From: a virus
Lineage: Duplodnaviria > Heunggongvirae > Uroviricota > Caudoviricetes
DNA: 12,452 nt
Strand: one strand, 5' to 3'
Virus record (IMG/VR): IMGVR_UViG_2713896784_000025
Both the position numbers and the translations under genes were made by a program. This document shows, in pieces, positions 666-9,819 of the stretch; position 1 is the first letter of the stretch, and the number at the start of each line of letters is the position of its first letter. The notes under the pieces are model-generated. The model made no database searches, was not told the origin of the DNA, and saw nothing but the letters and a program-made list of their open reading frames with translations.

Positions 666-834
666 AAGTGCGGGTGCGTTGAGGATGCCTGATTCATCAG
701 AGGTGGCGAGGGATTTCTCCCNNNNNNNNNNNNNNNNNNNNNNNNNNNNNNNNNNNNNNNNNNNNNNNNNNGGCTTTTCTCTATCTGCCGTTGGTGTTCA
801 TGCCCGAGGCAGATAGCCTCAAGCACCCGCAGCT

Positions 835-1263: not shown

Positions 1264-2037
1264 ATGACTAAACATATGGACATTCATTGTCAAACACGCA
1301 TATTTAACTCAATTAACCATGACACCAAATATAAAATATGTATTTTTACTCCAAAAAACATTAAAAAAAATAATGCAACTCTTTATATACTTGATGGGAA
1401 TAGTGCCAACAATTACATTTCTGATATTCTGCCTGTTATTGATGCACTACCCAATCCACCAGTGTTAGTTACACTTGGTTATGAATCTTGGAATAACCTT
1501 AGCATTCATCGCCGTGCTTACGATTATACTCCTGATGGTGAAAATGCTATTGTTGATAACTCTAAACCAGCATGGATCTACTTTACTGGTGGAGGAAGCC
1601 AGTCTTTCCGAGAATTATTACTAACTCAGATCATGCCATGGGTTAGTACTATTGCTCCGAACAGTTCCAGAATCGGTATATGGGGACACTCGCTAGGTGC
1701 TATTTTTGTGCTTGATTGCTTAAAAAATAATTCATGCTTTAACTATTATTATATATCTGCACCATCACTTCTATGGCAGAATGAAAGAATCATCAAGATA
1801 ATTAAAGATGATATATCAGAATCAAAGCACACTAAAAGTATATGCTTGCTTAACGGAAATCTTAGCCTTGATTACTCCGCATCTTTATATCCTGAAGCCA
1901 TCAAAGCGGAATCTGTTTTGAGAAATATTTTGACAGAAAAATACAGTAATTTTTCTATTGTACAATTTCCAGAGCTCAATCATCAGGAGACTTTCTCTGC
2001 TGCACTCTGGAATAGCATTATTCATTTCAGCATATAA
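1264..2037 (+). CDS. Esterase-family alpha/beta hydrolase (siderophore-esterase-like 'putative esterase' fold), 257 aa, on an AT-rich island
   Basis: ATG at 1264 preceded by GGGGAGA; stop at 2037. Motif string YILDGNSA ... GGGSQSFRELL ... IGIWGHSLGAIFVL ... YISAPSLLW matches the esterase-family pattern with a G-H-S-x-G nucleophile elbow. No N-terminal signal peptide. Gene and flanks are far more AT-rich than the rest of the window. Confidence 0.8.
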   Translation: MTKHMDIHCQTRIFNSINHDTKYKICIFTPKNIKKNNATLYILDGNSANNYISDILPVIDALPNPPVLVTLGYESWNNLSIHRRAYDYTPDGENAIVDNSKPAWIYFTGGGSQSFRELLLTQIMPWVSTIAPNSSRIGIWGHSLGAIFVLDCLKNNSCFNYYYISAPSLLWQNERIIKIIKDDISESKHTKSICLLNGNLSLDYSASLYPEAIKAESVLRNILTEKYSNFSIVQFPELNHQETFSAALWNSIIHFSI

Positions 2038-3121: not shown

Positions 3122-3171
3122 NNNNNNNNNNNNNNNNNNNNNNNNNNNNNNNNNNNNNNNNNNNNNNNNNN

Positions 3172-3539
3172 GTTGCGGTTACCACCGCCAGCGTGGAAGC
3201 AACCTTGCGAGTACTGACACCGAACTTACCCGCCAGTTCCTCACACGTTTTAGCCCCATCCTGACCGATAAACTCAATCATCATGTCTGCGGTAACTTTT
3301 TGTTCGACCTCCCCGGTCAGCATATCCTGTGCTTCAGATTTTACTGGCCGCTCTTCGGTTACCCGGGATTCACCTTCGCCAGCCAGAAACCAGGTGTGAC
3401 CAGTTTTATCAACGACGCCATTTATTTTGAGTTCCCACAGCTCGTTGACAGCCTCTTCACGACTGATTCCAAGGCGAGCTGCCACCACATGTGAAGAGGC
3501 TTTTTTCAGTGCTTTCAGTGCGTCAGATACGGTTTCCAT
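3172..3539 (-). CDS. Hypothetical protein with two winged-helix-like segments; N-terminal part, interrupted by N block
   Basis: ATG at 3539 preceded by GGAGG at an 8-nt spacing, immediately downstream of the DnaC-like gene. Two helix-turn-helix-like stretches (VVAARLGISREEAVNELWELKINGVVDKTGHTWFL and MIEFIGQDGAKTCEELAGKFGVSTRKVASTL). The frame is lost across 3122-3171. Confidence 0.55.
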
Positions 3540-3560
3540 TAAAATTTCCTCCGGACAAAA

Positions 3561-4307
3561 TTACTTCACAACCCTCATATTGCTGACATTTGGACGCCAG
3601 CTATCCCAGTTAAACGTCACCCATCGACCACCGTTCATGGTCATGCGGTCCATAATCCTCTCACCAAGAAGTGTACTCATTGCGGCATGATTCAGGTTTG
3701 TTAACATCCCGACACTGCACAGTGATGCTGTCCGGCGATCAATTATCTGGTGTAATACCACCTGCTCGTTTTTCGTCTCCCGCTGAACGCCTATTTCATC
3801 CAGGACCAGCAAATCAACACTGCAAAGCTCCTGTAAAAATTTTTCCCCGGATTTGCCGTTGTCGTAGCTGTCATGCAACACGCTCATGACATCAGACACG
3901 GTGACGATAATCACGCTGCGCCCCTTCGCCATCAGCCGGTTACCCATCGCCGCTGCAAGGTGATTTTTCCCGGTGCCGGTTTTACCGCTGAACACAAAAT
4001 TCGTGCACCCGGTCATCAGTTCGTCAGCTATGGATTTGGCCTGGCTCAGCGCGTATTTTTGCCCGTCGTTCTGCACCTGATAATTCGCAAACGAGCATTT
4101 GCTGTGCAGAGGCTGGATGCCCGAACGATTCAGGATTTTTTCCACCCGCAACTGGTGATTCTGGCGGTTAATCTCCTCGCTGCGTTTTCGTCCTTCAGCA
4201 AGTTGCCATTCCCGCCACTCCTCCACCGTCCGGTACGGTGGAACCGACGCCTGTGGTGCAAGTCTGCGAATACGTTCAAGAACCCCGGCTGCCGCAATGT
4301 TTTTCAT
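3561..4307 (-). CDS. DnaC-like replicative helicase loader (IstB-type AAA+ ATPase; YdaV-position), 248 aa
   Basis: ATG at 4307 with GGGGTGA upstream. Walker A FSGKTGTGKNHLAAAMG and Walker B-like DLLVLDEIG; overall resemblance to DnaC as I recall it. Lies 6 nt downstream of the initiator gene stop. Confidence 0.9.
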   Translation of the reverse strand: MKNIAAAGVLERIRRLAPQASVPPYRTVEEWREWQLAEGRKRSEEINRQNHQLRVEKILNRSGIQPLHSKCSFANYQVQNDGQKYALSQAKSIADELMTGCTNFVFSGKTGTGKNHLAAAMGNRLMAKGRSVIIVTVSDVMSVLHDSYDNGKSGEKFLQELCSVDLLVLDEIGVQRETKNEQVVLHQIIDRRTASLCSVGMLTNLNHAAMSTLLGERIMDRMTMNGGRWVTFNWDSWRPNVSNMRVVK

Positions 4308-4313
4308 GCCACA

Positions 4314-5516
4314 TCACCCCCTGAATCCCGGCGGAATTTCGGTATCCGGTTCAGAAATATGATTCACACAACGCTGGTTGTTCGTGCCGCTTACCGGGAG
4401 CAACCAGGGGTTTTCAAAATTCCGGTCCGGCCCAAAAAACGTCGTCGCTCGCTGAACAAATTCCGTTCCCGCTTTCCCGGTCGCCGCCAGGTATCTCGCG
4501 TAACGCCTCACACCATCCAGCATGGTCTCTGGTGGCACCCCCTCGCGCAATCTGGCCTTCCAGGCACTGAAAGCGGATTTCTTCGGGTTTGCCCCAGCAC
4601 GCAACGGGTATTCCCGCCAGACCTGTTCGAACACATCCGGATAATCCACTCGTCCCACAGACTGCCCGGTGCTTTCCGGGACTACCCGATCGGCTTCCCG
4701 CTGAATGGCGGAATCGGCTTCAGGCTGCTGCAGTTGGTGTGATTGCTCCGACCCTGCGGTCATCACCTGCTGCACAGCGCCCGAATCGGCTTCCGGTGTC
4801 GTGCCTGCTGGCTGACCAGGATTGACGGTCTGAACATCCCCTGCCTGGTTCGTGGTGTTTTTTTTGCCATGAACCATAGTGTTTTTGTCCTGTTCCTGTT
4901 CTTTCTCCTGCTCCTGTTCCTGTTCTTGGCTTCGAAGCCCCTTAAAAGCCCCTTCGAAGCCCCTTACCGAATTTCGGCTATTATTCCGCCTCACATCCAG
5001 ATGGAAATCCGTTTTATATCTGTCGTAAAACACTGACAGAAAAGCGTTTTCAGGTAATGATGCATACTCATTCCTGACACCTGCACAACGGTTATCGCCA
5101 GGCTTCAACGTTTCCCCAACCTGCCAGGCTGCCATTTCATGGACCCAGACCATCTCTGCATCATGGTCATAGCTACAAAAACCAGCTTCAACAGCCCTTT
5201 TAAGCCCCTTTGAAGCCCCTTCCAGACCAAGCCCGGTTTCATGAGCAAGGTATAAAACTGGCAGGTAATACAAACCCAGCATATTTGCGTGAGGGGATGT
5301 CATCAGGTAAAAAGCAACAACTTGCGCTTCTGCACCCGCCTTTCTAAGTTCTCTCCCCGTTTCTCCCAGCCAGAATCGCGGAGAAACTTTTGCGTAATCA
5401 CGCATGGCTACCTCATCTGGTGCCGAACCTTCCTCCGGATATAATCTGTGGTTCCCAATCGACAGAACCAGAGGAGGTTCGACATGTATTTTTTGAAAAG
5501 CCTTTATCAGGCTCAT
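4314..5516 (-). CDS. Replication initiator / replisome organiser (lambda O / YdaU position), 400 aa; alternative start at 5408
   Basis: Directly upstream of and nearly abutting the DnaC-like gene. Contains a QEQEQEQEKEQEQ low-complexity linker and a duplicated EGA[F/S]KGL peptide encoded by iteron-like DNA repeats. ATG at 5516 has no clear ribosome-binding site; the ATG at 5408 (MRDYAKV...) follows GAGG. Confidence 0.75.
   Translation of the reverse strand: MSLIKAFQKIHVEPPLVLSIGNHRLYPEEGSAPDEVAMRDYAKVSPRFWLGETGRELRKAGAEAQVVAFYLMTSPHANMLGLYYLPVLYLAHETGLGLEGASKGLKRAVEAGFCSYDHDAEMVWVHEMAAWQVGETLKPGDNRCAGVRNEYASLPENAFLSVFYDRYKTDFHLDVRRNNSRNSVRGFEGAFKGLRSQEQEQEQEKEQEQDKNTMVHGKKNTTNQAGDVQTVNPGQPAGTTPEADSGAVQQVMTAGSEQSHQLQQPEADSAIQREADRVVPESTGQSVGRVDYPDVFEQVWREYPLRAGANPKKSAFSAWKARLREGVPPETMLDGVRRYARYLAATGKAGTEFVQRATTFFGPDRNFENPWLLPVSGTNNQRCVNHISEPDTEIPPGFRG
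4898..4975. repeat. Hexamer tandem repeats (CTGTTC/CTCCTG-type) followed by three direct repeats of GAAGCCCCTT; iteron-like cluster 1
   Basis: 4898-4937 carries about 6-7 hexamer units; (G)AAGCCCCTT copies at 4944-4953, 4956-4964 and 4966-4975. Confidence 0.5.
5193..5222. repeat. Iteron-like cluster 2: two further (G)AAGCCCCTT copies plus a degenerate one
   Basis: AAGCCCCTT at 5203-5211 and GAAGCCCCTT at 5213-5222, about 250 bp from cluster 1 and inside the same gene. Confidence 0.45.
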
Positions 5517-5622
5517 GTATTAAATGTTGCAGCAACAAACCGCTGGTGTAACAGCCCCGAAATGCTCCCGGATTACAGAGCCTGGCTGCGCGCCGAAACA
5601 TACCTTCGTCTCGACATATTGA

Positions 5623-6132
5623 TTAGCGAACTTCAAAAAGAGACTGCATCCATTCATAACCTTCAGGGTATCGACGCTGTTCGCATTCTGGTATCGCGCC
5701 ATAGTGCTCTCTCAATAATTGAAGTGCGTCATCTCTCTTTTTCTGAACTGATTTTCTTGCTTCAACCAGCTCTGGAATCAGCGAATATCCCGCCGGAAGT
5801 GATCCAATACCCACCTCATGTTGACGAGCAGTTACAAGATGTGCCATACAACCAGCGTGCTGGATTGACTCCCTGCTCAGAGGCTGAATGGGATCACTCT
5901 CTGCTGAAGAAATACCAAGATTTGTATAATCCTCAATAAGCCCGGCACACGCTTCTGCATCAGCCAGCTTTATTCTGGTTTCCTTGCGCTGTTCTCTGGC
6001 TGACAAACGCCAGAGCAGCGCATTAGCTTTATGTATCAACCACTCTGCCAGCTCCACATCAGATAAACCGCCACGCCAGATGTGCGGACTGTTTTCGTAA
6101 ACGCTCAGTGTCAATTTTTTGTCATTACTCAT
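5623..6132 (-). CDS. Hypothetical early-right operon protein (about 169 aa)
   Basis: ATG at 6132 (MSNDKKLTLSVYENSPHIWRGG...), 13 nt downstream of the YdaT-like stop. The track's longer version begins at a GTG at 6183. No family recognised. Confidence 0.6.
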   Translation of the reverse strand: MSNDKKLTLSVYENSPHIWRGGLSDVELAEWLIHKANALLWRLSAREQRKETRIKLADAEACAGLIEDYTNLGISSAESDPIQPLSRESIQHAGCMAHLVTARQHEVGIGSLPAGYSLIPELVEARKSVQKKRDDALQLLREHYGAIPECEQRRYPEGYEWMQSLFEVR

Positions 6133-6145
6133 ATTTATTACCCAA

Positions 6146-6571
6146 TTAATGCACAGCCAGAGTGTTTCCTGCCGGGCCACCACGATTCATCTGATCGAAC
6201 AGAACGATCGCTGATGCAACGAAATCATCAATATCTTTCACCAGCCGTTCCTTCGTCTCTACCAACTCCCGAAAATAAGCGGAACTGTGGCTGCGCATTC
6301 GGGCCACCAGCGGAGGCGGCATCGCTTTTTCGATCGCTGGTAACAACGCCTGAATTTTTTTAACCGCATCAGGAGTGTCTTTCTCCACCCAGCGGAAAAT
6401 TTTCTGAGTATTGCGAGCCATGGCTTCCGGATGGCTGTCGTCATACAGTTCCGGGAACGTCATTCCCAGCTCGAAATACGCTTTGGTAATTTTCGCAGCC
6501 GGTACTTTTTCGCCGTCCGGATGCGCCCAGGCATTCATCGCCATGCGGATGTGTTCATGCTTGATTTTCAT
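6146..6571 (-). CDS. YdaT-like protein (Rac prophage ydaT position), 141 aa
   Basis: ATG at 6571 with GGAG 8 nt upstream; its first 17 nt overlap the end of the Cro-like gene. Begins MKIKHEHI..., which matches my recollection of E. coli YdaT in start, length and position, but this is unverified. Confidence 0.65.
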   Translation of the reverse strand: MKIKHEHIRMAMNAWAHPDGEKVPAAKITKAYFELGMTFPELYDDSHPEAMARNTQKIFRWVEKDTPDAVKKIQALLPAIEKAMPPPLVARMRSHSSAYFRELVETKERLVKDIDDFVASAIVLFDQMNRGGPAGNTLAVH

Positions 6572-6827
6572 GAATCAACTCCGGCGCATTTGATGTGTTA
6601 ACCTTACATCCAACAGGTAAACCGTCGGTTGGGTTAGGATAAATATCTGGGCGGATTTCATGCGGGGTAACTTCCCACTTCATTAGTTGGCATAACGGAA
6701 TTACCTGCTTTGGGGGAACGCCAAAGCTAAACCATTGCCAAACAGTCTGTTGAGCGACCCCCATATAACGACCTATTTCAGCCTGAGTGTATTTCTGCCT
6801 AATTTTTTCGCGAGTGCTATCTAGCAT
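6555..6827 (-). CDS. Cro-like / YdaS-type HTH regulator, 90 aa
   Basis: ATG at 6827 with strong AGAGGAGGG upstream. HTH segment QAEIGRYMGVAQQTVWQW; transcribed divergently from the repressor gene. Confidence 0.8.
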   Translation of the reverse strand: MLDSTREKIRQKYTQAEIGRYMGVAQQTVWQWFSFGVPPKQVIPLCQLMKWEVTPHEIRPDIYPNPTDGLPVGCKVNTSNAPELIHENQA

Positions 6828-6860
6828 TTTGCCCTCCTCTAAAAACTATAAGCAAAGCCT

Positions 6861-6899
6861 ACAATAAAAAACTGTATGCAATCAACAGTTTTTTATTGT
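6861..6899. promoter_or_regulatory. Operator: perfect inverted repeat ACAATAAAAAACTGT-(9 nt)-ACAGTTTTTTATTGT in the divergent intergenic region (OR-like)
   Basis: Arms at 6861-6875 and 6885-6899 are exact reverse complements; they sit between the Cro-like start (6827) and the repressor start (6936). Confidence 0.6.
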
Positions 6900-6935
6900 G
6901 ATGCTTTTAACAGTATTTACCTGTAAAATTGAATA

Positions 6936-7337
6936 ATGATGAGCGCCCTAGAAGTATCTATGTACAGAATCAGCAAGCTTCTTCAGGAAACTGGATGGAG
7001 CCAGGCTGAGCTTGCCCGTAGAATTGGTGTGACACAACAAACTGTTCAACAATGGGTCAGCGGTAAGGCTACACCTAAAGCCTCAAGTTTGGATAAACTG
7101 GTTGAGGTTTCAGGGCATCCATTGCATTGGTTTTTATTGCCTCCTGAAGAGTGTGAGCAAATTTTCACCCCTGACACGATGAAAATTGGTCCTCGCCAAC
7201 GCGAACTGCTCCAAGCTTTTAGTGCGTTTCCTGAGGAAGACCAAGAAAAAATGCTTCAAGAAATCAAAGACAAGAAAAAATCAATGGAAGAAACCATTGC
7301 TAGGTGGCTGGCGGCACAAAAAAGCCGCCGGGCGTGA
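6936..7337 (+). CDS. Prophage repressor, short XRE-family HTH protein (DicA/RacR-like; possibly PaaR2-like), 133 aa
   Basis: HTH WSQAELARRIGVTQQTVQQWVSG; C-terminal tail (PRQRELLQAFSAFPEEDQEKMLQEIKDKK...) is laid out like DicA as I recall it; no S24 peptidase domain. No clear ribosome-binding site at 6936, so possibly leaderless; 6960 is an alternative ATG. Confidence 0.85.
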   Translation: MMSALEVSMYRISKLLQETGWSQAELARRIGVTQQTVQQWVSGKATPKASSLDKLVEVSGHPLHWFLLPPEECEQIFTPDTMKIGPRQRELLQAFSAFPEEDQEKMLQEIKDKKKSMEETIARWLAAQKSRRA

Positions 7338-7364
7338 CCACAGTACAAGAAGAGGAGTTATGCC

Positions 7365-7556
7365 ATGGGTACAGCCCTTTCTCCGATAGTTTCAGAATTC
7401 GAAACTACCGAACAAGAAAACAGTTACAACGAATGGTTGCGCACTAAAGTAACGTCAAGCCTTGCAGACACTCGCCCCGCAATTCCACATGACGAGGTAA
7501 TGGCTGAAATGGAAAATCTTATTGCTCAAATTGCTGTAACTAACAAGAGCGAGTAA
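7365..7556 (+). CDS. paaA2: Type II antitoxin partner of ParE (PaaA2-like), 63 aa
   Basis: GGAG ribosome-binding site; stop TAA overlaps the ATG of the downstream toxin (TAATG). Size and sequence (SEFETTEQENSYNEWLRTKVTSSLADTRPAIPHDEV) fit my recollection of PaaA2; symbol is tentative. Confidence 0.7.
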   Translation: MGTALSPIVSEFETTEQENSYNEWLRTKVTSSLADTRPAIPHDEVMAEMENLIAQIAVTNKSE

Positions 7557-7843
7557 TGTTACCCATTTTATGGCTACCGTCTGCTCGCGATGATTTGCGC
7601 CAGATCATAACTTACATCGCCAAGGAGAACCCACCGGCAGCACGTAGACTAAAAATACGCATTGAAACATCGGTATTACCTCTATCTGAGCATCCGTACT
7701 TATATCCACCAAGCGAACGGGTTTCTGGATTGAGAGAGATCGTGACCCACCCTAACTACATAATCCTGTACAGAGTAGCTGCTTCAAGCATTGAGATTGT
7801 AAGCGTGACACATTCTCGGCGACAATTTCCCTTCTCTATCTGA
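7556..7843 (+). CDS. parE: ParE/RelE-superfamily toxin (ParE2-like), 95 aa
   Basis: MLPILWLPSARDDLRQIITYIAKENPPAARRL...LSEHPYLYPPSERVSGLREIVTHPNYIILYRV: the characteristic ParE N-terminal helix and core. Translationally coupled to the antitoxin. Confidence 0.85.
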   Translation: MLPILWLPSARDDLRQIITYIAKENPPAARRLKIRIETSVLPLSEHPYLYPPSERVSGLREIVTHPNYIILYRVAASSIEIVSVTHSRRQFPFSI

Positions 7844-7893
7844 GTTGAACAATTTTCATACTCCCTCTTTCGAGGGATTTTTTTGCCCAAAAC

Positions 7894-7933
7894 AACAATT
7901 AAAAACTGTTGACACAAAAACAGTTTTTTATTG
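7894..7933 (+). promoter_or_regulatory. Second operator copy with embedded TTGACA (OL/pL-like)
   Basis: ACAATTAAAAACTGT (7894-7908, 14/15 identical to the OR left arm) and ACAGTTTTTTATTGT (7919-7933, identical to the OR right arm), 10-nt spacer. TTGACA at 7908-7913; the -10 element is ambiguous (TAGATT at 7933-7938). Confidence 0.5.
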
Positions 7934-8125
7934 TAGATTACATACACCAACCACCCACCCCGCCCCACAGAACGCCGGGCAATACTTCGAGTTACCAAGC
8001 AGTGGTCAGGGGGTAAGTAGCCAGCCCGAGGCGTATGAACATGACGGCAGGGTTCAACTTTAATAACTATGCAGCNNNNNNNNNNNNNNNNNNNNNNNNN
8101 NNNNNNNNNNNNNNNNNNNNNNNNN

Positions 8126-8284
8126 GCTGGCTGGAAAGAAACTCAGGTGAGTGATATGGATTTCGACACAATCATGGAAAAGGCTTACGAAGAATACTTC
8201 GAAGGCCTTGCCGAAGGCGAGGAAGCTCTCAGCTTCAGTGAGTTTAAACAGGCGCTTTCCAGTTCGGCAAAATCTAACGACTAA
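8126..8284 (+). CDS. Small acidic ORF, first early-left gene; 5' end hidden by N block
   Basis: Open frame after the N block (...MDFDTIMEKAYEEYFEGLAEGEEALSFSEFKQALSSSAKSND); internal ATG at 8156 follows AGGTGA. An ATG at 8069 lies before the N block in the same nominal frame. Confidence 0.3.
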   Translation, partial: AGWKETQVSDMDFDTIMEKAYEEYFEGLAEGEEALSFSEFKQALSSSAKSND

Positions 8285-8295
8285 CGGAGTTAAAG

Positions 8296-8685
8296 ATGGA
8301 ATTTAAAGATTTACTAAAAGAAATCCAGGAAATTGCAGCACATGCACTTCACCAACGTCTGAACGAAGTTGAATTAGAATCTGCAACGAAGAAATACATT
8401 GATAATATGGCTCGTAATGTGCGCGATGCGTTTACCGGATTGTACTCTGTTTCGGTAACAAACAACCAGAATACTGAAGAAACTGCAAAGCGGATTGCCT
8501 CGGTGATGGGTTTTCATGTCGAGGAAAAGTATTCAAAAAAAGAATTCTGGAAAACTACAAAAAAATTGCAGAGCGAGAACTGTCATCTCCTGCGGCAATC
8601 GCTTCTTTCTATGAGGAAAGTTATTCAGATGACACAGGATTACCGGAACTGCTCTCATTACTTGAAAAATTCGGAATTATCATGA
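8296..8685 (+). CDS. Hypothetical early protein, 129 aa as written; likely frameshifted
   Basis: ATG at 8296 with GGAG 8 nt upstream. After an A8 run (8533-8540) the frame becomes poor, while a different frame continues protein-like to 8833. Confidence 0.55.
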   Translation: MEFKDLLKEIQEIAAHALHQRLNEVELESATKKYIDNMARNVRDAFTGLYSVSVTNNQNTEETAKRIASVMGFHVEEKYSKKEFWKTTKKLQSENCHLLRQSLLSMRKVIQMTQDYRNCSHYLKNSELS

Positions 8686-9367: not shown

Positions 9368-9404
9368 CGCTGCAACGCCCTCTGTTATCAATATTCTGGT
9401 GACA

Positions 9405-9451
9405 TTTGGCGGTATCAGTTTTACTCCGTAACTGCTCTGCCGCCCTTTTTT
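9405..9451 (+). terminator. Weak intrinsic-terminator-like element (plus strand)
   Basis: GGCGG ... CTGCCGCC with a long loop, followed by TTTTTT at 9446-9451. Confidence 0.25.
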
Positions 9452-9630: not shown

Positions 9631-9819
9631 ATGGAAAAGTTATCATGTAATGCCAGCACGTCTGAACTTCGTTTCGAAATTGGCGTTATCACTGGAGACA
9701 AAACATTTATTGAAGACGCCATTAAGCAGAGAAAACTCGAGCAGGACCTGTTAAATGAAGTATGCATTCCTTCAATGCTGGCTCGTCTGGACCTGCTGCA
9801 AAAAGGATATAAACAATGA
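9631..9819 (+). CDS. Hypothetical small protein, 62 aa
   Basis: ATG at 9631 with GAGGA upstream (MEKLSCNASTSELRFEIGVITGDK...); stop overlaps the next start (ATGA). Confidence 0.55.
   Translation: MEKLSCNASTSELRFEIGVITGDKTFIEDAIKQRKLEQDLLNEVCIPSMLARLDLLQKGYKQ

Follow-up and report, generated by a model that had tools for sequence, protein, structure and literature searches.

In the window, that is, the whole 12,452-nucleotide stretch of DNA analysed here, a repressor gene, an antitoxin gene, and a toxin gene lie in this order on the plus strand. A pair of ydaS-like and ydaT-like genes is on the opposite strand, and paired operator-like repeats bracket the antitoxin and toxin genes together with the repressor gene. 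The features of this region are as follows.

6146-6571, minus strand: ydaT-like gene (ECs_1071), 141 aa, CII analogue (Pfam YdaT_toxin, 1.2e-9).
6555-6827, minus strand: ydaS-like gene (ECs_1070), 90 aa, Cro analogue (Pfam YdaS_toxin, 8e-10), divergent from paaR1.
6561-6578, no strand assigned: predicted YdaT operator TTGATTTTCATGAATCAA, an exact TTGATT-N6-AATCAA, spanning the ydaS stop and the ydaT start.
6861-6875 and 6885-6899, no strand assigned: OR, two 15-bp pseudo-palindromic operators forming a 39-bp palindrome.
6885..6880, minus strand: proposed PR -35, TTGATT (own reading), between the OR operators.
6861..6856, minus strand: proposed PR -10, TAGGCT (own reading), overlapped by OR.
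6910-6924, plus strand: weaker third operator-like site ACAGTATTTACCTGT with 11/15 matches, abutting the proposed PRM -10.
6924-6929, plus strand: proposed PRM -10, TAAAAT, read from the sequence.
6936-7337, plus strand: paaR1 (ECs_1069), 133 aa, repressor of the DicA type and analogous to CI, composed of an N-terminal HTH and a helical C-terminal domain.
7365-7556, plus strand: paaA1 (ECs_1068), 63 aa, PaaA-family antitoxin without a DNA-binding domain.
7556-7843, plus strand: parE1 (ECs_1067), 95 aa, ParE-family toxin.
7862-7884, plus strand: candidate terminator, a TCCCTC-TTTC-GAGGGA hairpin with T7 behind it, at which the operon probably ends.
7895-7909 and 7920-7934, plus strand: OL, two 15-bp operators flanking the proposed PL.
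7909-7914 and 7934-7939, plus strand: proposed PL -35 (TTGACA) and -10 (TAGATT), with a 19-nt spacer.

The stop codon of the paaA1 gene (TAA, 7554-7556) overlaps by one base with the start codon of the parE1 gene (ATG, 7556-7558). Thus, the TAATG junction that a preliminary description had assigned to an antitoxin and a ParE-type toxin is confirmed by the ORFs and the sequence. The pair is directly downstream of the HTH repressor gene, as that description also held; the spacer between the paaR1 stop codon and the paaA1 start codon is 27 nt in length and contains a Shine-Dalgarno sequence, AAGAGGAG (7350-7357). In a terminator scan of positions 6500-8300, the sole plus-strand candidate was the hairpin at 7862-7884, just after parE1, and none was found within 6936-7843. 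A hairpin with a T-run is present at the same place in two other loci (L003 and L004). An Rfam scan at the gathering threshold found no RNA element inside 6936-7843, DicF being its sole match. Co-transcription of the paaR, paaA, and parE genes has been published for the family, and the geometry in the window agrees with co-transcription of the three genes from a promoter upstream of paaR1.

PaaA2 (PF21217, 5.6e-19) is the only Pfam family matched by PaaA1, and among solved structures PaaA1 matches that of PaaA2 (3zbe) at 1.4e-20. No HTH, RHH, AbrB, or ParD domain was found in PaaA1 by the Pfam scan. ParE1 matches Pfam ParE_toxin at 2.9e-17 and, over residues 1-93, the solved ParE2 structure 5cw7 at 3e-36. 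The expected homology of the pair to ParE and PaaA2 is thereby established. ParE1 is 65% identical to ParE2. PaaA1 is 62% identical to PaaA2; 37 of 45 positions agree in residues 1-45, whereas the C-terminal tail of 18 residues has 2 identities. The net charge of this tail is -2 in PaaA1 vs. +5 in PaaA2, while that of the N-terminal hairpin of ParE is +3 in ParE1 vs. -4 in ParE2. According to a review, neutralisation is limited to cognate pairs; PaaA1 fails on ParE2 and PaaA2 fails on ParE1. The charge swap between the PaaA tail and the ParE hairpin fits this absence of cross-neutralisation, and it could explain the cognate specificity. The same review states that no three-protein PaaR-PaaA-ParE complex has been detected on DNA.

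PaaR1 matches HTH_3 (2.3e-12) and Phage_CI_repr (7.4e-5) in the Pfam scan, the 434 repressor at 3e-5, and the NCBIfam DicA family over its full length at 8.4e-14. No Peptidase_S24 match was found in PaaR1 by the Pfam scan. Thus, PaaR1 is without the RecA-cleavable peptidase, the C-terminal autocleavage domain, of lambda CI and LexA-type SOS-cleavable repressors. PaaR2, the repressor of the paralogous system, was also reported to have no peptidase motif. The C-terminal residues (approximately 50 aa) are conserved between PaaR1 and PaaR2 and may form an oligomerisation domain, whereas the N-terminal domains are unrelated.

Is this a known locus? Positions 3172-8075 of the window are 100% identical to the cryptic lambdoid prophage Sp4 of E. 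coli O157:H7 Sakai (NC_002695.2). The Sakai record annotates it as 'prophage Sp4, lambda-like phage' with the immunity genes ECs_1067-1071, and Sp4 equals CP-933M (Sakai record and PMC2884950). In the literature, O157:H7 has two paaR-paaA-parE systems that are paralogues; system 2 (paaR2-paaA2-parE2) is carried by CP-933P, and its homologue has been reported on CP-933M. PMC4803016 and PMC8630535 credit Hallez et al. 2010 with the paaR1-paaA1-parE1 genes of O157:H7 CP-933M/Sp4. Judging from the sequence identity and these secondary sources, which supply the label 'system 1', the locus in the window is paaR1-paaA1-parE1, and there is no sequence difference from that of CP-933M/Sp4. Thus, the preliminary description was right about an operon that is already published, and the locus is not a new discovery. 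The resemblance to PaaR2-PaaA2-ParE2 that it noted holds for the gene order and is closer than it supposed, the locus being a paralogue in the same organism. The listed O157:H7 genomes have two paaA-parE places, and the second type (L002) matches PaaR2 (N-terminus MQKKE), PaaA2, and ParE2. No close DNA relative of the version in the window was found in the phage collection searched. At the protein level, the collection has one relative, phage Evi, with a module of the CP-933P type.

Sp4/CP-933M is considered a defective prophage, and its integrase is frameshifted in strain TR01. Such observations would suit a locus that is left over from a cryptic prophage, decaying and no longer functional, but this is very improbable for the immunity region, as none of its five genes is disrupted and the operators, YdaT site, and terminator are likewise intact. 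Both systems are reportedly expressed in O157:H7, which also counts against decay. Furthermore, the 479-bp toxin-antitoxin segment is at least 99% identical across 437 complete E. coli genomes, and the cognate-specific neutralisation described in the review points the same way.

The two flanks of the operon share a repeated sequence. With at most one mismatch allowed, the window has four copies of the 15-mer ACAATAAAAAACTGT, arranged as inverted pairs at OR and OL and absent elsewhere, and none of 200 shuffles reached four matches. Thus, the placement of the toxin-antitoxin pair between two operator copies, proposed earlier, is correct, with paired 15-mers at 6861-6899 and 7895-7934. The operator pattern is ACAAT-N5-ACTGT. 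In a locus of the same immunity type (L004), the OR arms are conserved and the 9-bp spacer is different. The system and its family were already published, and solved structures exist for PaaA2 and ParE2. What is added here concerns system 1, on which there has been less work than on system 2, and includes a map of two OR sites, two OL sites, and a weaker third site over PRM.

A consensus promoter scan of positions 6500-8300 reported none of the expected PR, PRM, and PL promoters. The manually chosen candidates for these promoters have weak hexamers or 18-19-nt spacers. A minus-strand site that the scan placed inside parE1 (7825..7796) was given no weight, because the count of one is below the 2.5 expected by chance. 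The proposed PRM -10 hexamer is separated from the paaR1 ATG (6936) by 6 nt, and there is no Shine-Dalgarno sequence. The same spacing is found in the CP-933P type (GATAAT, then 6 nt, and then ATG), whose paaR2 gene has been shown to lack a leader. By analogy, the translation of paaR1 is probably leaderless too. As for the other flank, the proposed PL would read away from the toxin-antitoxin genes into ydfA, ydfB, dicF, and dicB. The conserved leader after PL is not a structured RNA, since shuffled versions of it fold better (z = +2.3). A 23-codon ORF in this leader was set aside, as its frame is not conserved in L004.

The three contiguous genes and the antitoxin devoid of a DNA-binding domain might also be taken as one toxin-antitoxin unit, in which PaaR1 and PaaA1 are the two halves of a split antitoxin derived from an ancestral ParD/HigA-like protein. 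This possibility has been raised in the literature. It is improbable here, since PaaR1 is a prophage repressor of the DicA type over its full length, and with operators at both OR and OL its control would extend beyond its own operon to PR and PL. In addition, the Qin prophage has the same repressor position without a toxin-antitoxin pair, and the modules recombine independently; ydaS, OR, and paaR of L004 are 97% identical to those of the window, while parE is only 78% identical.

The motif TTGATT-N6-AATCAA was defined by footprinting for the YdaT of CP-933P. It has a single match in the window and is found at the ydaS/ydaT junction in all four immunity types compared. It is likely that the site marks a PRE-type entry point for an alternative transcription of the paaR1 operon.

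Taken together, paaR1-paaA1-parE1 in the immunity region of Sp4/CP-933M is, with high probability, an operon in which PaaR1 acts as a CI-like repressor and the toxin-antitoxin pair would stabilise the immunity region by addiction. The 15-bp pseudo-palindromes of OR and of OL would be the binding sites of PaaR1. Binding would shut off PR, and with it ydaS (Cro-like) and ydaT (CII-like), as well as PL, and with it ydfA, ydfB, dicF, and dicB. The transcript that encodes PaaR1 itself, a weak and probably leaderless one from PRM, would be under PaaR1 control too and should extend across paaA1 and parE1 as far as the hairpin at 7862-7884. A PRE-type promoter at TTGATT-N6-AATCAA probably allows YdaT to switch on the paaR1 operon as well. 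The two-gene cassette would take the place of lambda rexA-rexB. PaaA1, having no DNA-binding domain, would wrap around ParE1 and neutralise it. Since the antitoxin is supplied by way of the repressor operon, a cell that loses its immunity region or has it replaced may be killed or arrested by the more stable toxin, which is then set free. What is said about co-transcription, repression, toxicity, neutralisation by the cognate antitoxin only, and plasmid stabilisation or addiction comes from publications that deal with the paralogue or with both systems, and the addiction role would extend to system 1 by analogy.

The assignment of the pair to a slot equivalent to that of rexAB is upheld by the bracket of OR-like and OL-like sites, and the same analogy is in print for the paralogue. 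Does the pair then act like rexAB? It lies in the rexA-rexB position inside the repressor operon and would hence be expressed in a lysogen. Other type II toxin-antitoxin systems have been reported to defend against phage. The pair might thus serve mainly in exclusion or abortive infection as a functional analogue of rexAB in the lysogen, where superinfection would shut off or deplete PaaA1 and free ParE1 would abort the infection. This is rather unlikely. PaaA1 and ParE1 match none of the families in PADLOC-DB 2.0, so that filing the pair as a known defence system is unsupported, and PaaR1 has generic HTH matches only. The papers on the paralogue report that the system 2 locus is addictive and stabilises plasmids, and the words 'exclusion' and 'abortive' do not occur in them. 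Moreover, ParE2 was not seen to be active in either of the two transcriptional states of the system 2 switch, which also weighs against the addiction reading. Stabilisation by addiction is preferred, although published support for it comes from system 2 only. If exclusion, or the cross-talk between prophages discussed below, were true, it would matter for understanding why many cryptic lambdoid prophages are retained in O157:H7.

The layout logic of the window matches that of lambda. In cI-rexA-rexB, accessory genes likewise lie downstream of the repressor in the lysogenic transcript, between OR/PRM and OL/PL, and lambda has a leaderless cI and a divergent cro-cII. The likeness is positional only, as PaaA1 and ParE1 have no homology to RexA and RexB (Pfam gives only PaaA2 and ParE_toxin). 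The cargo of lambda is an exclusion system, whereas that of the window is a type II toxin-antitoxin pair, and the S24 domain is missing from PaaR1.

The canonical parDE systems (plasmid RK2 and Vibrio cholerae parDE2) likewise have a toxin of the ParE family. Their antitoxin is ParD with an autoregulating ribbon-helix-helix domain, whereas PaaA1 has no ParD or RHH match. Unlike canonical parDE, the window has a separate upstream repressor for transcriptional control.

The dicA-dicC region of the K-12 Qin prophage has a repressor of the same family as PaaR1, which is 25% identical to K-12 DicA. The downstream ydfA, ydfB, dicF, and dicB are common to Qin and O157 at 86-97% DNA identity (97% for ydfA/ydfB and 86% for the dicF-dicB region). 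In Qin, dicA is followed by a 166-bp spacer with operators and then by ydfA, without a toxin-antitoxin pair. The Cro analogue of Qin is dicC, in contrast to the ydaS-ydaT pair of the window. This comparison is evidence that the toxin-antitoxin pair is an insertion relative to a Qin-type dicA region.

The closest comparison is with the paralogue paaR2-paaA2-parE2 of CP-933P/Sp12 (PMC8630535; structures 3zbe, 5cw7, 5cze, and 5czf). In CP-933P, PaaR2 is the CI analogue, YdaS is the Cro analogue, and YdaT is the CII analogue; the OL/PL set is repressed by PaaR2 and YdaS, and 'parE2 and paaA2 ... replace rexB and rexA'. The window and CP-933P agree in gene order, including a divergent ydaS-ydaT, and in having sets of OR and OL sites. 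They also share the YdaT site and a conserved PaaR C-terminal domain, and the -10 hexamer proposed for paaR1 is as far from the ATG as that of paaR2. The YdaT proteins of the window and of the CP-933P type (L002) are 86% identical. In contrast, the two PaaR proteins share 34% identity and their HTH domains are unrelated. YdaS is only 16% identical, which is expected for different immunity types. The paaA1 and parE1 genes overlap, while paaA2 and parE2 are one base apart. The operators of CP-933P are GTTTAGT repeats vs. ACAAT-N5-ACTGT in the window, a difference that fits the unrelated HTH domains and the divergent YdaS proteins. Since the operators differ, Sp4/CP-933M and CP-933P should be heteroimmune at the level of the repressor and Cro, with a shared activator site for YdaT. 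With the YdaT proteins so similar, the TTGATT-N6-AATCAA site the same, and the PaaR C-terminal domain conserved, the switches of Sp4/CP-933M and Sp12/CP-933P could be coupled, so that one could activate or co-repress the toxin operon of the other.

It was found that the three open reading frames at 6936-7843 encode a repressor, an antitoxin and a toxin in one direction, and that two further ORFs lie upstream in the opposite direction. The following genes come from the ORF listing and the raw sequence:

6146-6571, minus strand: ydaT-like ORF, 141 aa
6555-6827, minus strand: ydaS-like ORF, 90 aa
6936-7337, plus strand: paaR1, 133 aa
7365-7556, plus strand: paaA1, 63 aa
7556-7843, plus strand: parE1, 95 aa

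The toxin-antitoxin pair lies directly downstream of the repressor gene on the same strand, after a 27-nt gap in which a Shine-Dalgarno sequence (AAGAGGAG, 7350-7357) ends 7 nt before the paaA1 ATG (7365). The TAATG junction of the preliminary description is present: the paaA1 stop codon TAA (7554-7556) and the parE1 start codon ATG (7556-7558) have one base in common. Its reading of the pair as a ParE-type toxin and a PaaA-type antitoxin is borne out by Pfam, where the sole match of ParE1 is ParE_toxin (2.9e-17) and that of PaaA1 is PaaA2 (PF21217, 5.6e-19), and by the solved structures of E. coli O157 ParE2 (5cw7, 3e-36, residues 1-93) and PaaA2 (3zbe, 1.4e-20). PaaR1 matches HTH_3 (2.3e-12), Phage_CI_repr (7.4e-5) and the HTH of the 434 repressor (about 3e-5), and it aligns over its full length to the NCBIfam DicA model (8.4e-14, under that model's cut-off). 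The two opposed proteins match YdaS_toxin (8e-10) and YdaT_toxin (1.2e-9). No S24 peptidase, ParD/RHH, RexA or RexB domain was found in the Pfam scan of the locus proteins.

Judged by sequence identity and secondary sources, this is paaR1-paaA1-parE1, a known locus and not a new one. Many E. coli O157:H7 chromosomes match window 6500-8000 at 100% identity, and 3172-8075 is 100% identical (BLAST) to a stretch of the Sakai chromosome (NC_002695.2) within the feature 'prophage Sp4, lambda-like phage', which carries:

ECs_1067, 288 bp: 'plasmid stabilization system protein'
ECs_1068, 192 bp
ECs_1069, 402 bp: 'phage repressor protein'
ECs_1070, 273 bp
ECs_1071, 426 bp

Sp4 and CP-933M are one prophage, named in each of two sequenced strains (PMC2884950). 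Among the genomes listed, each O157:H7 genome has two paaA-parE places. At the second, of the CP-933P type, the regulator begins with MQKKE, as does PaaR2, whose start was determined by N-terminal sequencing in published work, and the antitoxin and toxin are the PDB sequences of PaaA2 and ParE2. Since this second type is system 2 (paaR2-paaA2-parE2), the window holds the other paralogue; the suggested likeness to PaaR2-PaaA2-ParE2 thus proved to be that of a paralogous O157:H7 system. Three runs of exactly 50 N in the window (722-771, 3122-3171 and 8076-8125) replace 280, 99 and 172 bp of O157:H7 sequence; the first hides hokD and the third the start of a ydfA-like DUF1391 gene. Listed ORFs spanning these runs, such as 8069-8284, were rejected as artefacts.

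The pair does lie between two operator copies, as had been claimed. The 15-mer ACAATAAAAAACTGT, a pseudo-palindrome (ACAAT-N5-ACTGT), occurs four times at no more than one mismatch and at no other site in the 12.4 kb window; four matches were seen in 0 of 200 shuffles. A repeat search gives the same arms for both pairs. The sites are:

6861-6875/6885-6899: OR operator pair, inverted, between ydaS and paaR1
6910-6924: weaker third operator-like site, ACAGTATTTACCTGT, 11 of 15 matches, adjoining the hexamer TAAAAT (6924-6929)
7895-7909/7920-7934: OL operator pair, inverted, 3′ of parE1

In L004, a prophage sharing this immunity type (98% identity in PaaR, 99% in YdaS), the arms are conserved while the inter-arm spacer is different. 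TAAAAT is followed by 6 nt and the paaR1 ATG (6936), before which the sequence has no Shine-Dalgarno. Since the CP-933P type has the same spacing (GATAAT, 6 nt, ATG) and its mRNA was shown to be leaderless, I infer that the paaR1 mRNA may also be leaderless. By manual assignment, I propose TTGATT (minus strand, 6885..6880), 18 nt and TAGGCT as a candidate PR, and TTGACA (plus strand, 7909-7914), 19 nt and TAGATT as a candidate PL. Each TTGATT or TTGACA hexamer overlaps one operator by one base; a consensus promoter scan of 6500-8300 reported neither promoter. A hairpin (7862-7877) with a T-run, 19 nt 3′ of the parE1 stop codon, is the sole plus-strand terminator-like site in 6500-8300.

According to the account of Hallez et al. 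2010 given in a review (PMC4803016), PaaA is a new antitoxin family with ParE as its partner, and paaR-paaA-parE are co-transcribed from a promoter 5′ of paaR. In system 2, the published analogues of CI, Cro and CII are PaaR2 (made from a leaderless mRNA), YdaS and YdaT; OR and OL operator sets are present, the switch is bistable, and the locus is addictive, stabilising an unstable plasmid. There, parE2 and paaA2 'replace rexB and rexA' (PMC9986795), which agrees with the rexAB-equivalent position claimed for the present pair. The best-supported reading transfers this published addiction to system 1: the prophage repressor operon would bear a type II cassette where lambda has rex, the supply of antitoxin would be coupled to the lysogenic transcript, and a cell in which the immunity region is lost or replaced would be punished by the toxin. 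An exclusion or abortive-infection role for paaA1-parE1 is less likely and finds no support: PADLOC gave no match for PaaA1 or ParE1. Reading the three genes as a 'split antitoxin' is weakened by the DicA type of PaaR1, by its operators at both OR and OL, and by the Qin prophage of K-12, whose arrangement lacks the pair. The preliminary observation is confirmed and its interpretation supported.

Of 5426 complete E. coli genomes, 833 have a match to the 479-bp toxin-antitoxin segment (at least 99% identity in 437); the CP-933P type occurs in 633 genomes. That the locus is a decaying remnant is contradicted by its intact genes and sites and by this strong conservation. Within the phage collection, a ParE of the ParE1/ParE2 family occurs in a single record, Escherichia phage Evi (LR597642.1), which has a CP-933P-type paaR2-paaA2-parE2 module at 1916-2782, with parE unannotated. 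As judged by sequence, the immunity-region modules are mosaic. Against L004, DNA identity is 95-97% for ydaS, OR, paaR and paaA, and 78% for parE. The differences are 11 nt in paaR (7 synonymous, 3 nonsynonymous codons), and, for 7365-7843 against L004 3001-3479, 9 nt in paaA (2 synonymous, 7 nonsynonymous) and 63 nt in parE (37 synonymous, 13 nonsynonymous). From these small numbers, it looks like a recombination breakpoint lies at the paaA/parE border, and the paaA changes possibly track a swapped toxin.

On the PL side, the operon is Qin-like (ydfA, ydfB, dicF, dicB):

9394-9445, plus strand: DicF sRNA gene (Rfam RF00039, 76.9 bits, E 5.9e-16)
about 9631-9819, plus strand: dicB, from annotation, 3′ of DicF

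Provided that the proposed operators function as predicted, two cell-division inhibitors would also be held in check by PaaR1. Between the proposed PL and ydfA there is a C-rich leader about 150 nt long (7945-8075, extending into the run of N; L001 8446-8600). Conservation of this leader is 92% among four heteroimmune prophages, but it is not in the K-12 Qin dicA-ydfA spacer. It folds worse than its own shuffles (z = +2.3); being C-rich and unstructured, the RNA is more suggestive of a Rho-utilisation or nut-like site than of a structured element. Elsewhere, a gene for an 'ECs1072 family phage-associated protein' (5484-5939, plus strand) lies reversed, with ydaT on one side and the O-like replication gene on the other, and is absent from the CP-933P-type, L003 (another prophage) and L004 loci; an unannotated 186-aa ORF without a Pfam match (5623-6183, minus strand) overlaps it. 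An AT-rich island (1201-2400, GC 0.32-0.35 against 0.45-0.59 in its surroundings) contains the alpha/beta hydrolase gene ECs_1077 (1264-2037, plus strand), which is transcribed against its phage neighbours and resembles a moron.

Between system 1 and the CP-933P type, protein identity is 34% for PaaR, 62% for PaaA, 65% for ParE, 16% for YdaS and 86% for YdaT. The N-terminal HTH domains of PaaR1 and PaaR2 are unrelated, while the last 50 or so residues are conserved, and the GTTTAGT repeats published for the CP-933P-type OR are lacking in the window OR. Thus, Sp4/CP-933M and CP-933P should be heteroimmune at the level of repressor and Cro, with the YdaT activator site in common. This site, TTGATT-N6-AATCAA, was defined by footprinting (PMC9986795); its exact form occurs once in the window (6561-6578, at the ydaS/ydaT junction) and at the same position in 4 of 4 immunity types compared. 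Comparison of the window with L002 (the CP-933P-type locus), L003 and L004 shows that prophages with unrelated repressor/Cro pairs have this exact site and a YdaT of 85-90% identity in common; prophages in one host, such as Sp4 and Sp12, may therefore cross-activate each other at the CII level. Up to residue 45, PaaA1 and PaaA2 have 37 of 45 positions in common, against 2 of 18 in the tail; for ParE1 and ParE2 the counts are 19 of 39 in the N-terminal hairpin region and 43 of 53 beyond it. Net charge is swapped (PaaA tail −2 in system 1 and +5 in system 2; ParE hairpin +3 and −4), which would fit the cognate-only neutralisation in the same review's account of Hallez et al. 2010, where PaaA1 is unable to neutralise ParE2 and PaaA2 unable to neutralise ParE1. 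In K-12 Qin, a 166-bp spacer that has operators of its own separates dicA from ydfA, with no toxin-antitoxin pair; identity to the O157 sequence is 97% for ydfA/ydfB and 86% for the dicF-dicB region. Compared with Qin, the pair has been inserted between the repressor gene and OL; an insertion was also suggested by the authors of PMC8630535.
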